Notes: generated by a model from the letters alone, not told the origin. DNA of 14,055 nt from a virus (IMGVR_UViG_2778261354_000013:1-14055); one strand, 5' to 3'; numbered from the stretch's first letter, positions 2,834 to 10,034 are shown. Numbers and translations are program-made.

Positions 2834-3230
2834 GACTCTCCAGCTCCACCAACATAAAGCACATCTCAGCCCTTAAATTATTAATCATACTTAACATTAT
2901 GTTTTGCCGTGGTTTTTCCTCTACTTCATGCCATGTCTGCGGTGTGATGTCCCCGCGTTTAATCCCGACCCCGTAAAACTCAATCAGACGCCTTCTGACG
3001 GCCTGCTTCTCTGACCATGTTTTGATGTGGTTTTTCAAAACTGGCTTCACTGCGTGCGTATCACGCGCAATACGCCCCCATATAAAGCAACCTGCCTTCC
3101 ACCCCTCAATTCGGGCGCCCTTCCCTCGTCGCCTGCGCGCTGCAATTGCCTCGTTTTTTGTGCACCGTGCAAACCGGCCTCAGCCAGCGCCGTTACTGGG
3201 CTGAATGGGGATGAAACACATAAGAAAAAT

Positions 3231-7109: not shown

Positions 7110-7522
7110 GCGTCACACTCCCCGACAGTTGCCGTCTGAAACGCCGCGCGGTACAGCACGAGAAGGCGCTGGTATTCGCCGATAAAACCTTCTGCGGTGT
7201 ATATACCTTTCACGGCCACGCTGTGGTTTGTCATTTCCAGAACAAGCGCCATCTCTGACGACGACCAGCTGATGGCGGTACTGTCGGTGCCGTTGATGTG
7301 AAATAAACCAAAGCTATCACCATCACCTTTCACGTCCACGCGGTAACGACCGTCAACGGTGAAGGAGAAATCCCCGTATGTGGTGATGCTGCGGGCAGCC
7401 TGTTTACAGGCACGGCGGTAATGGTCGTGCCAGTTGTTCAGACGTGAAGCCAGTCTGGGATCAACCGCCCACATCCAGTTAAAAAAGTCCTGAATATCTG
7501 AAAGTCCCTTAACGCTCTTCAT
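7106..7522 (-). CDS. Hypothetical protein, 138 aa, immediately upstream of A
   Basis: GGAGGT SD 4 nt before ATG 7522; stop overlaps the A start (ATGA). No motif recognised. Confidence 0.6.
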   Translation of the reverse strand: MKSVKGLSDIQDFFNWMWAVDPRLASRLNNWHDHYRRACKQAARSITTYGDFSFTVDGRYRVDVKGDGDSFGLFHINGTDSTAISWSSSEMALVLEMTNHSVAVKGIYTAEGFIGEYQRLLVLYRAAFQTATVGECDA

Positions 7523-7545
7523 GAGAACCTCCGGTAACAGACGTG

Positions 7546-7582
7546 CGGAAGCCTCCCGCGCACGGGTGCGGGATAGCTTCCG
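7546..7582 (-). other. GC-rich nested stem-loop in the intercistronic gap (7523-7590)
   Basis: Outer stem CGGAAGC / GCTTCCG and inner stem CCCGC / GCGGG, read directly. No U-tract, so not a canonical terminator. Confidence 0.3.
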
Positions 7583-7590
7583 GATATGGT

Positions 7591-7815
7591 TTATCGGCGC
7601 TTGTTGTTGATGAGGCTTTGCAGTTCTGCCAGGTCTTCGGCCAGATAGCTGAAGACGGCAGCGCAGTAACGGTTTGACAGCGCGTGCGTGCGCTCATGCA
7701 GCATGTTGATGTGCATGATTTGCGCGACGCGTGTTGCGCGGAAAAGTCTGCGGTTGATTTCGCTGCGGATGTGAATACGCTCAGCGCGGGCGCGCTTTTG
7801 CTTGCGGTTTGCCAT
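7591..7815 (-). CDS. Hypothetical basic protein, 74 aa
   Basis: ATG 7815 preceded by AGAGG SD at 7 nt; N-terminus is Arg/Lys-rich (RKQKRARAERIHIR). First gene after a ~380 bp non-coding spacer. Confidence 0.55.
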   Translation of the reverse strand: MANRKQKRARAERIHIRSEINRRLFRATRVAQIMHINMLHERTHALSNRYCAAVFSYLAEDLAELQSLINNKRR

Positions 7816-8112
7816 GGTGTGGCCTCTTCGTTTGTGAATTTTGAAAACTCACCATCCAGAGCTGCGAAACTGTGGGTGGCGAGACGTACGAGGTTCGCAG
7901 TACCGGCAAACGAAGAAACCGGCCCGACCGAAGTCGGCCCCGTACGCCCCGCCATAATTCTGACGCGAAAAAGACGTGGCGATACAGTACGCACAAAAAA
8001 ACCGCTGGCGCGGCTGTGCGCTTCGTTTGTCAGCAGGCTGCGAAACCCGACACCCGTTTTATGAGATGCAGCGGAAATGTAACCTGACTCAACGAGCACT
8101 GGCAAGCGGTTT

Positions 8113-8140
8113 TTGTGTTGCGTGCTGAAGTATGTATAAT
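8113..8140 (+). promoter_or_regulatory. Candidate sigma70 promoter for the plus-strand membrane-protein gene
   Basis: TATAAT at 8135-8140 with a weak TTGTGT -35 16 bp upstream; strong GGAGG SD at 8191-8195. By-eye prediction only. Confidence 0.3.
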
Positions 8141-8201
8141 CGCGGCGCAAAAATGGAATGCGCCGAAGGATAGCGGCGTTTATTAACAATGGAGGTTGTT
8201 T

Positions 8202-8669
8202 ATGCCTGTTGCTATGGAGCAAGCAGACAAGAAGATTTTTTTCCATCTGTGGTACAGCTACTGGCTGGAAGAGATGGTTTTCATACTCAGCAATAAAGCC
8301 GCTGCCGTGTTGCGCGCCGGGGCACTGATTGCTGCGGTATTGTCCTTTCTTCTCGTAGGTTTTCCCGTCCTGATGAGCCTTTGCGGGCTGGCGTTTTTTG
8401 TTTTTTCCTGGTTTTGCAGCAAGTGTGAATTCGTCGCCGAACTGGCGTGCTGGCAGAAACAGAGCTACCTTCGTCTGATTACGCAAAGGGATTCCATGAG
8501 CACTGAACGCCTCATTGAGCGCATTCTGTATCTGGAAGAAACGAACAGCGCATTCATGAAGGCGTTTGTCAGGCCTGCAAAAAACAAAGCGAGCGCATCT
8601 GTTGGTCTGTCTGCCAGCGAGCATTTGCGTTACTCCGAAAGGTTAATCTGCTGGTTGTGCGGCTTCTGA
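8202..8669 (+). CDS. Predicted inner-membrane protein with two TM helices and a C-terminal Cys-pair domain (CSKC...CWLC), 155 aa
   Basis: ATG 8202 with GGAGG SD at 6 nt spacing (the track's 8196 start is TTG). Hydrophobic segments AAAVLRAGALIAAVLSFLLVGF and VLMSLCGLAFFVFSWF. The only plus-strand gene inside the minus-strand early operon. Confidence 0.55.
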   Translation: MPVAMEQADKKIFFHLWYSYWLEEMVFILSNKAAAVLRAGALIAAVLSFLLVGFPVLMSLCGLAFFVFSWFCSKCEFVAELACWQKQSYLRLITQRDSMSTERLIERILYLEETNSAFMKAFVRPAKNKASASVGLSASEHLRYSERLICWLCGF

Positions 8670-8996
8670 CCGGCGAAGCAGCTGCGCGACGGTTTCGCCG
8701 CCTGCCCGGGCAGACGGGTATGACACTGGCATATTCAGCTTGAGTGCCATTGCGTACTCCGCCCATGCGCCAGCGGACTCTTCCCATCCATCCAGTAAGT
8801 AAATGGCATCGGCACACATGAGCATCGGAATACAAATGCTCATGTACTGCTGTTGGCTCATGAATACCGATGCGCCACCCACAAACGGCTCAACCAGGCA
8901 GTCAGCTTCTGGCAGATGCGCCTTCAGTGTGTTCATGATGCGGCTTTTGCCGCCCACCCATACCAGCGGTGTACCGGATAACCGTTCTTTGCTCAT
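8643..8996 (-). pseudogene. Dam-family N6-adenine methyltransferase, N-terminal remnant (117 aa ORF, truncated)
   Basis: [35 protein letters not shown] matches the Dam N-terminal SAM-binding region (E. coli Dam from memory: [35 protein letters not shown]). The ORF ends after 117 aa with no DPPY catalytic motif, and none was found in any minus frame downstream. AAAGAGG SD precedes ATG 8996. Confidence 0.6.
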
Positions 8997-9205
8997 AACG
9001 CGGCCTCTTTGTTATAGGTTTCGTGCGTTAATAAATCCCATGATGCCCCGTTGTTTTTGCTCAGCAGTCGCCAGCGAAAACCGATTCTTATTACCAGGTA
9101 GTTGTGGGGTTTTATGCGTGAAAAATTCCGCACGCCGTCGCGGAATAAATGCAGCGATGCGCGGGCTTTTCTTTCCACGTTCAGGGGGGGGGCAGCAACA
9201 CACAT
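8993..9205 (-). CDS. Possible small upstream ORF (70 aa) containing a C9 tract, coupled to the Dam-like start
   Basis: Stop overlaps the Dam-like ATG (ATGA), but there is no SD before ATG 9205. A second frame (9012-9221) also spans the homopolymer. Coding status is uncertain. Confidence 0.25.
   Translation of the reverse strand: MCVAAPPLNVERKARASLHLFRDGVRNFSRIKPHNYLVIRIGFRWRLLSKNNGASWDLLTHETYNKEAAL
9184..9192. repeat. G9 homopolymer tract (C9 on the minus strand)
   Basis: Read directly: nine consecutive G at 9184-9192, between the exonuclease stop and the Dam-like gene. Confidence 0.9.
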
Positions 9206-9231
9206 TCAGGATGGCGACCATAGCTTCACAC

Positions 9232-9813
9232 TCATATGCTCAGGAATGGCGTTGGGAAGCGCTGCCAGATTTCTGACACGACCCTTGCCTGGTAAATGGC
9301 ATCGCCCAGTGCAGTGTGAGCAATGGTCTCTTTGCCTGATCGGCCTGGTATTCCCCAGCCGGAGGACTTAGCCATGTCGATAAGCGAGCGCATACAGCGC
9401 TCGTTCCAGTAGCGCCACGGAATACTTTTTTCTCCGGTTGTTCGCTTTATGGCTGATCTCAGGATTGGGAAAACAAAGGATGCGCCCTTGCACCATACGA
9501 TTAGTTGATTGCCCATGGTTTCGTCTTGCATGTTGCGCGAAATGAACGCCAGAAATTCGGTTACTGCCGCAAGTTCTGTTCCCTCTGCGTTGAGCAGGCA
9601 GGATCTGGCCTCCGCGGATTCCCCGGCCCACCATAAGGCGGTTGATGCATTGACGGTTCCGCCGTTGCGCTCTGAATCCACCGGGTCGATGTATTTCTCA
9701 AACTGCTTGCCCAGCTTTCCGGTGAACGGGTCGAAAAACACCGCGCCGATCGCGAATATGACTGCATCCGGTCCGGTACCCAGTGTTTCGGTGTCGATCA
9801 TGAGATGGTTCAC
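9232..9813 (-). CDS. DnaQ-like (DEDDh) 3'-5' exonuclease, 193 aa
   Basis: Exo I motif MIDTETLG and Exo III motif HTALGDAIYQA. Start proposed at GTG 9813 (AAGGAG SD 8 nt upstream; GTGA overlap with the upstream stop); ATG 9801 is an alternative. Confidence 0.75.
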   Translation of the reverse strand: MNHLMIDTETLGTGPDAVIFAIGAVFFDPFTGKLGKQFEKYIDPVDSERNGGTVNASTALWWAGESAEARSCLLNAEGTELAAVTEFLAFISRNMQDETMGNQLIVWCKGASFVFPILRSAIKRTTGEKSIPWRYWNERCMRSLIDMAKSSGWGIPGRSGKETIAHTALGDAIYQARVVSEIWQRFPTPFLSI

Positions 9814-10034
9814 TGTGTGCACTCCTTCTGTTCGGCGTTGTTCGTGAGCGTTGCAATCAGTCGTTCAATGGATGAACATGTTTCCAGCGGGGAGGTGTGC
9901 TTCTCTCTCGCCGTGTTAACCAGGTCACTCAGTAATTCGCAGATATGTGCACGCTCGGCTTTTCTTGCGGCCATGCTGATGTGTGCATGATGGTTAACTG
10001 GTCTGGCGGTTGTTGGTGATTCGACTATTCTCAT
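9810..10034 (-). CDS. Hypothetical protein, 74 aa
   Basis: ATG 10034 with AGGAG SD at 7 nt. Shares short colinear patches with the 7591-7815 protein (AERxHI ... LxNN). Confidence 0.55.
   Translation of the reverse strand: MRIVESPTTARPVNHHAHISMAARKAERAHICELLSDLVNTAREKHTSPLETCSSIERLIATLTNNAEQKECTQ

Follow-up and report, generated by a model that had tools for sequence, protein, structure and literature searches.

A hypervariable poly-C tract in P2-like Escherichia coli prophages is probably a replication-slippage hot spot within a single small gene

The run of nine cytosines on the coding strand of a P2-like prophage operon is most probably a hot spot of replication slippage that lies within one small gene, and no junction of two genes, a reading to which we assign a probability of roughly three in four. 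The two overlapping minus-strand frames that meet at the run together make up one gene, which a +1 frameshift in the run itself has split. We infer that replication slippage is the cause of its length changes, and that these occur at the rate of a mutational hot spot and not under the control of an evolved contingency switch. In this E. coli prophage the homopolymer is hypervariable in nature, roughly one copy in four being out of frame, and it could serve as a convenient natural slippage marker and as a candidate for repeat-based switching in E. coli. On present evidence it is an ordinary hot spot for mutation in a gene without an assigned function; a phage-borne example, rare among enterobacteria, would be gained if switching were both fast and consequential. 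The literature searches made on repeat-based prophage switches in E. coli found no paper that describes the locus.

The window, by which we mean the whole 14,055-nucleotide stretch of DNA that was analysed, is a P2-like E. coli prophage with an integrase, a repressor-like HTH protein, a GPA replication protein, a portal protein and a terminase. Its minus strand carries an early operon composed of DUF4761, DUF4754, an exonuclease, a ParE_like gene and dam (Table 1). The neighbours of the ParE_like gene are the same in all relatives, a 193-196-aa exonuclease upstream and Dam downstream, and the overlap of the native gene's stop with the dam start (ATGA) is conserved across the family. The dam gene has a ribosome-binding site of its own, AAGAGG, placed 7 nt ahead of its ATG, and a search for RNA structure around the dam start found nothing above background that would sequester it.

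Table 1. Features of the poly-C locus and of related runs; positions are those of the window unless another sequence is named.
Feature	Coordinates	Strand	Remarks
3'-5' exonuclease (Rv2179c-like)	9232-9822	-	Pfam PF16473, E 6e-49; same annotation in relatives
Exonuclease stop and ParE_like ribosome-binding site	9222-9234	-	Extra T at ~9230
Split 75-codon gene, frameshifted copy	8993-9221	-	Intact if C8
ORF-A, 69 aa	9012-9221	-	Native start and 13 native codons, then 56 out-of-frame codons
ATGTGTGTTG	9196-9205	-	Just upstream of run; potential start in all three frames
Poly-C tract, C9 (G9 on + strand)	9184-9192	-	Direct reading; relatives have C7, C8, C9 or C10 there
ORF-B, 70 aa	8993-9205	-	Whole ParE_like domain; ATGA overlap with dam start at 8996
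Dam'-'DUF4406 fusion ORF	8643-8996	-	Dam codons 1 to ~46 and DUF4406 C-terminal ~70 codons
Interrupted-run alleles	L054 1679-1906; L056 1665-1892		E. coli 2013C-3033, JNEC-KY176
Second C8 run, in distant homologue	L018 about 3000-3010 (same contig as L077 9767-9795)		

An earlier note on this DNA had drawn attention to nine consecutive G residues and had called such a run rare. The run is present exactly where that note had placed it, as C9 on the coding strand, and its rarity is borne out: it is the only G or C run of nine or more in the 14-kb window, the mean expectation from dinucleotide-preserving shuffles being 0.11, with at least one such run in 9 of 200 shuffles. Runs of G.C only 8 bp long are already outliers in mutation-accumulation work on E. 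coli K-12, and the E. coli indel rate rises exponentially with run length (PMC8510543). In the native gene the tract runs from the third base of Cys codon 10 through the Pro codons that follow to the first base of Leu codon 13, which in the split frames places it at codons 10-13 in ORF-A and at codons 5-8 in ORF-B.

The two overlapping frames have the geometry claimed for them. ORF-A begins with an ATG 10 nt past the exonuclease stop (9234-9232) and its own stop ends 15 nt ahead of the dam ATG, while ORF-B opens at an internal ATG (9205) with no Shine-Dalgarno-like (AGGAG-like) motif in the 20 nt before it. The proposal that a change in tract length would fuse the two also stands, in that C8 (or C11) joins the start of ORF-A to the body of ORF-B to give a product of 75 or 76 aa. 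The C8-restored ORF matches PF24732 and phrog_1525 and the out-of-frame parts match nothing, which identifies the two frames as one broken gene. The out-of-frame part of ORF-A had no family match in Pfam, NCBIfam or PHROG, and neither did an antisense ORF at 8803-9276 (+) in which the run is read as GGG. One unbroken ORF of ~75 codons, although not found in the C9 window, is present in the C8 relatives and in distant homologues, and this fused frame forms a conserved family of 75-aa proteins. One element of the original description has to be revised: what it called a C-terminal, downstream remnant is the whole conserved domain, with the PF24732 match covering aa 9-66 of the 70 residues of ORF-B. 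For annotation, the overlapping ORF pair is to be read as one frameshifted gene.

The C8-type product and ORF-B both match PF24732 (ParE_like), at 64.2-64.6 bits where the gathering score is 24.4. The 75-position profile of phrog_1525, a phage family annotated without a function, matches aa 4-73 (E 1e-26) and takes in residues encoded upstream of the run. Among 31 homologues the 75-aa length is kept, 18 columns are invariant and the alignment is nearly gap-free; their hosts are prophages of Klebsiella, Enterobacter, Citrobacter, Salmonella and Pantoea, and almost all are exactly 75 aa. An AlphaFold model built from the homologue alignment (pLDDT 84.6) consists of a strand, a helix, four strands and a helix, and the product is predicted on this basis to have a RelE/ParE-type fold. 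Fold comparison was used here after a PDB sequence search with the small protein gave no meaningful match; NCBIfam gave no match to it. The protein differs from RelE/ParE type II toxins in being only 75 aa long with one predicted N-terminal helix, and its sequence identity to solved toxins of the superfamily is 3-16%. Type II toxin-antitoxin systems have an antitoxin-like neighbour, whereas the genes that flank the locus are the exonuclease and Dam; no adjacent antitoxin gene or family was detected and PADLOC gave no match. The locus is not a canonical toxin-antitoxin pair.

The consequences of tract length were followed by simulating C5 to C12. With C5, C8 or C11 an intact product of 74-76 aa is made from the native ATG, and its stop overlaps the dam ATG. 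With C6, C9 or C12 the native start leads to a nonsense peptide of 68-70 aa whose stop lies 15 nt before dam, and an ATG in the ParE frame is found at +16. With C7 or C10 the product is a peptide of 12-13 aa, ending at a TGA right after the run and 184 nt before dam, and the ParE-frame start is a GTG at +20. Just upstream of the run, ATGTGTGTTG supplies start codons in the three frames (ATG, GTG and GTG/TTG), so that a ParE-frame ORF is open at every tract length and the domain could be expressed in every state; no Shine-Dalgarno motif precedes any of these codons. Automated annotation has followed the open frames. RefSeq/PGAP lists N-terminally truncated "ParE family toxin-like proteins" in C7 and C9 genomes, among them the ORF-B form in C9 genomes, with ATG, GTG or later starts and no pseudogene flag, and in a C7 genome the start chosen by PGAP is the GTG of ATGTGTGTTG.

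Gene calls in the region are also inconsistent in other ways. A protein of E. coli ED1a (P0056, MLLPPPERG...) was considered as an independent case of frameshift and rejected once it was decoded as an out-of-frame ORF call on a C8 genome; the ED1a entry CAR07115.1 (ECED1_0913, 62 aa) is the wrong frame annotated across an intact C8 copy. In the 90% protein cluster to which the ParE-like protein belongs, a 193-aa exonuclease is the representative and many other members are exonucleases, and one 125-aa call (P0036) is an exonuclease C-terminus running into the ParE-like frame. Together these suggest read-through or fusion gene calls at the exonuclease/ParE-like junction in some assemblies.

Codons 10-13 of the gene read TGC CCC CCC CTG in the E. 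coli clade, a C8 run, and AGC GCG CCG CTG, without a run, at the same position in distant homologues. The tract was found within the E. coli clade only and, judged from these alignments, is a recent feature of that clade. It occurs there in two allele groups with differing flanks, TGC TGC CCC CCC CTG and TGC CGC CCC CCC CTG. Two E. coli complete genomes, 2013C-3033 and JNEC-KY176, have the interrupted form CGC CCC ACC CTG, in which a Pro codon is changed to Thr and which should be stable against slippage; the protein of this allele (P0002) is found on 40 contigs. A distant homologue with 55% aa identity (L018) has a C8 run of its own, GCA ACC CCC CCC ACG, at codons 4-6, and in its relative L037 that run is broken up (ACC CCA CCC). 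The L018 run may represent an independent origin of an N-terminal poly-C stretch in the same family. An IMG/VR scan found no length variants of it, and two extra matches to the L018-type run were set aside as unrelated chance matches.

In the mechanism that we favour, the native gene is a 75-codon member of the early (lytic) operon, situated between exonuclease and Dam methylase, in which the run built up at codons 10-13 (TGC CCC CCC CTG) within the E. coli clade. Slipped-strand mispairing during replication would then add or remove C residues. In C9, as in C6 and C12, ribosomes are led into the nonsense frame (69 aa), and in C7 and C10 translation halts at the TGA just past the tract. The window carries the +1 allele (C9), and its gene would be OFF or leaky at best. 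Out-of-frame alleles would persist under relaxed selection if, as P2 biology leads one to expect, early-operon genes are silent in lysogens.

Natural variation at the tract is extensive. The pattern that the earlier note had named as telling against a slipped-strand tract, uniform length with no ORF conservation, is not what was found: the comparison of tract length among prophages that it had proposed gives lengths from C6 to C12, near-identical backgrounds included, and the 75-aa ORF is conserved. Forty-eight relatives were pooled, sampled without regard to tract state and with some IMG/VR and metagenome entries perhaps from the same samples, and comprise 35 C8, 7 C7, 5 C9 and 1 C10 copies; 35 of the 48 are in frame and 13 (27%) are out of frame. 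The region was present at 89-93% identity in 29 of 5,426 E. coli complete genomes, 27 of them matching at least 97% of the query. These 27 comprise 19 with C8 (12 read directly and 7 deduced from match length), three with C9 (H1, H8, H12), three with C7 (H19, H20, H22) and the two with interrupted runs. The IMG/VR and metagenome loci (n = 23) are C8 in 16 cases, C7 in four, C9 in two and C10 in one, and products implying C12 (four contigs) and C6 (two contigs) occur in a large protein collection. Outside this set, sequenced phages yielded no megablast match to 8900-9400, and protein-level phage matches, to Klebsiella, Salmonella and Escherichia P2-like phages, reach at most 65% identity and have no run. 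A scan of GTDB representative genomes returned one distant locus only, and a second IMG/VR pattern scan returned known contigs and no new loci.

These length changes have arisen recurrently and independently in natural populations. When the run was normalised, all 41 genes translated at full length and 15 distinct nucleotide alleles remained, four of which carry two to four different run lengths, genes identical outside the tract having C7, C8, C9 or C10. None of the 41 normalised genes, 21 of which have an out-of-frame tract, contains a second disabling mutation, as would fit recent or reversible events, or residual function. Longer flanks tell the same story. A C10 copy and a C8 copy (L029 and L002) differ by 3 mismatches in 3.2 kb, and a C9 and a C8 copy (L049 and L061) by 4 mismatches in 4 kb. 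A C7 copy (L043) differs from a C8 copy (L025) by 1 mismatch in 1.2-kb flanks, the downstream match being split in two over 3.2 kb, and one C8 copy (L064) is identical to two C9 copies (L010 and L046) across 2 kb downstream.

A neighbour-joining tree of 47 sequences was built from 900 nt of flank and the tract states were placed on it by Fitch parsimony, which required at least 15 tract changes (16 stepwise) with C8 at the root. C8 is the commonest state and, by this reconstruction, probably the ancestral one. C8 and C9 tips are intermixed within the clade to which the window belongs, which suggests changes in both directions over longer times. With a tree length of 0.288 substitutions per site, the tract changed at least ~52 times as often as the average flanking site; both recombination and selection confound this figure, which is to be taken as a rough lower bound. 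Few other indels fall within the same 1.2 kb: an A6 run is invariant, and the sole indel in the vicinity of a T7 run is one of 2 bp in two sequences. Three near-clonal genome sets are all C8 (G1/2, G6/7 and G8 read directly; SW0716xx and UCPROB deduced from match length). Slipped-strand mutation is well supported as the cause of the length changes.

The earlier note had treated a sequencing or assembly artefact as an equal alternative. Homopolymers of 8-10 nt are error-prone on several sequencing platforms, and the window's C9 could be a consensus error standing for a true C8: the two sequences closest to the window by flank (L065 and L066) are both C8, and the same assembly has a unique single-T insertion 38 nt away. 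Against this, the exact ORF-A product of the window's C9 state is found on 22 contigs, with the seven places listed coming from seven different samples, and the exact C8 version of the same allele on 19. C9 products of sister alleles are found on 201, 39 and 31 contigs, and C9 is also seen in IMG/VR, in metagenome assemblies and in three complete genomes. Near-identical flanks with differing tracts, and the rarity of other indels at homopolymers nearby, make artefact unlikely as a general explanation. C9 is a real heritable state of the population, whatever holds for the window's own assembly, and for that assembly we regard a miscounted C8 as highly unlikely. The abundance of C9-type products, on at least ~300 contigs overall, is for its part a point against a plain hot-spot reading.

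A different way to account for persistent C9 alleles is that the gene is still expressed from them, by a +1 tRNA-Pro frameshift, by RNA polymerase slippage or from the internal ATG at 9205; frameshifting at CCC-C might be helped by Pro-Pro-Pro stalling, and the lesion could on this view be harmless or even be put to use. Slippage by +1 on CCC-C is documented in E. coli and reaches as much as ~1% at the second codon (PMC4519876, PMC7577736); the motif occurs in the C9 sequence, CCC CCC CCU. Any +1 slip in the CCC CCC CC of C9 enters the ParE frame and restores the native reading, every tract length leaves a ParE-frame start 9-14 nt upstream of the run, and the freedom of OFF alleles from second lesions would suit continued expression. 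However, the two-frame layout is not conserved: C8 is the commonest and probably ancestral state and each of the distant homologues is simply one continuous ORF. Shuffled versions of 9100-9245 (-) fold just as stably as the real sequence (z = 0.68), which gives no sign of a stimulatory RNA structure around the run, and no upstream Shine-Dalgarno-like stimulator was found near it, nor were promoter- or terminator-like sites above background. The ATG at 9205 has no Shine-Dalgarno-like motif, and a product started there would be without the first beta-strand of the predicted fold. The documented tRNA-Pro sites are themselves error sites that slip at ~1% or less (PMC4519876, PMC7577736), and the locus bears no mark of efficient, programmed frameshifting. 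Low-level slippage of ~1% or less is plausible and would amount to leakiness at best. Expression of C9 alleles by recoding strikes us as extremely unlikely to be the explanation.

Slippage at a hot spot also has to be weighed against selection for slippage, that is, against a poly-C tract maintained as a contingency locus in which reversible ON/OFF expression of a toxin-fold protein benefits prophage or host, C7 and C10 also uncoupling translation of the phage Dam methylase that follows. Situated in the 5' coding region, the repeat is placed so that length changes toggle the frame, and it is polymorphic between copies with 0-4 mismatches in 3-4 kb of flank. The C6-C12 polymorphism with its many independent recurrences and the interleaving of C8 and C9 in one clade would fit such a role, as would the retention of the run in two allele groups with different flanks, OFF alleles without second lesions, a stop/start overlap with the next gene that is conserved across the family and the separate C8 run at codons 4-6 of the distant homologue. 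The run is moreover made of CCC, the rarest proline codon in E. coli. Yet ~73% of copies, and the root, have the in-frame C8, where free slippage without selection predicts about one third. The near-clonal genome sets are invariant, the relative rate estimate is modest, most of the family has no run and some E. coli alleles interrupt it. If the lytic early operon is normally repressed in lysogens, as in P2, there would be little lysogen phenotype on which selection could act, and dam has its AAGAGG site with no structure to sequester it. Finally, mismatch repair is active in E. coli, and few switches based on repeats are known in this species. We consider a selected switch unlikely, and the earlier note's term "phase-variable", in the sense of an evolved, fast and reversible switch, finds no support in a tract that is clade-restricted, dominated by a probably ancestral C8, uniform in three near-clonal sets and changing at an estimated rate typical of a hot spot. 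More doubtful still is the fuller proposal of a phage-borne contingency locus that toggles a RelE/ParE-fold early protein and, through uncoupling of Dam in C7 and C10, generates mixed subpopulations of lysogens or progeny; if true, it would be a "phasevarion-like" prophage switch in a species in which switching by repeats is rare.

Comparison with known switches brings out the same differences. Phasevarion mod genes are alike in pairing a simple repeat with a DNA methyltransferase gene, the ORF here overlapping dam in intact relatives, but there the repeat lies inside the methyltransferase gene itself, whereas here it is in the upstream gene and dam has its own ribosome-binding site. Homopolymer contingency loci of Neisseria, Haemophilus, Campylobacter and Bordetella (PMC5084427, PMC1891110) show the same toggling of frame by a 5' poly-G/C tract whose length, as here, differs between closely related isolates. 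Those loci, however, have high measured rates, often within a single culture, mostly serve surface or restriction-modification functions and occur in tract-rich species; the present tract varies in between-strain comparison with clonal sets uniform, lies in a phage early-operon protein and has a dominant in-frame state in a mismatch-repair-proficient E. coli host. Among E. coli prophages the closest analogue is the neuO gene of CUS-3 in E. coli K1 (PMC3046976, PMC13001214), which is likewise prophage-borne and switched in translation by a repeat in its 5' coding region. The repeats of neuO are heptanucleotides, and for neuO expression in the lysogen is known, together with a demonstrated capsule O-acetylation phenotype and experimentally shown switching.

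The window's own copy of the region has further lesions and looks like one in decay. The "Dam-like gene" of the earlier note does begin with a Dam start at 8996, but of the gene itself just 46 codons remain, joined to a DUF4406 C-terminus, with Pfam matches to MethyltransfD12 at aa 13-48 and to DUF4406 at aa 46-93. By BLAST against L001, L002 and L010, ~1,453 bp are missing at a junction near 8858 that has a microhomology of 1-2 nt only; the deletion takes out two small genes together with the greater part of dam and the 5' portion of DUF4406, and leaves the fusion in frame. The closest relatives, such as L010 (97% identical), have an intact four-gene stretch in its place. The fusion product is found on a single public contig, that of the window's own assembly, and the window is identical to GCA_002461255.1 contig NJZR01000002.1 over the 3.8 kb compared. 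Upstream of the split gene, an extra T (~9230) changes the conserved GAGGTGAAGC to GAGTGTGAAGC and breaks the ribosome-binding site GAGGTGA. It is confined to the window and found in 0 of 31 aligned relatives (32-sequence alignment), and may be either an assembly error or a second lesion that inactivates the gene. With C9, a damaged ribosome-binding site and the dam deletion together in one copy, an inactivating hot-spot mutation is favoured over a switch for this window.

Two observations concern neighbouring parts of the operon. In L044 (E. coli STEC17-183, complete genome) a 1-nt deletion outside any homopolymer, at ~1100-1660, shortens the exonuclease and may be another operon lesion or an assembly error. 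In the window, between the dam remnant and replication gene A, Rfam matches at gathering level identify a C4 antisense RNA at 7872-7959 (-; 83.5 bits) and an isrK Hfq-binding RNA at 7995-8069 (-; 61.2 bits), and a 371-aa ORF that overlies both (7509-8624) is probably spurious.
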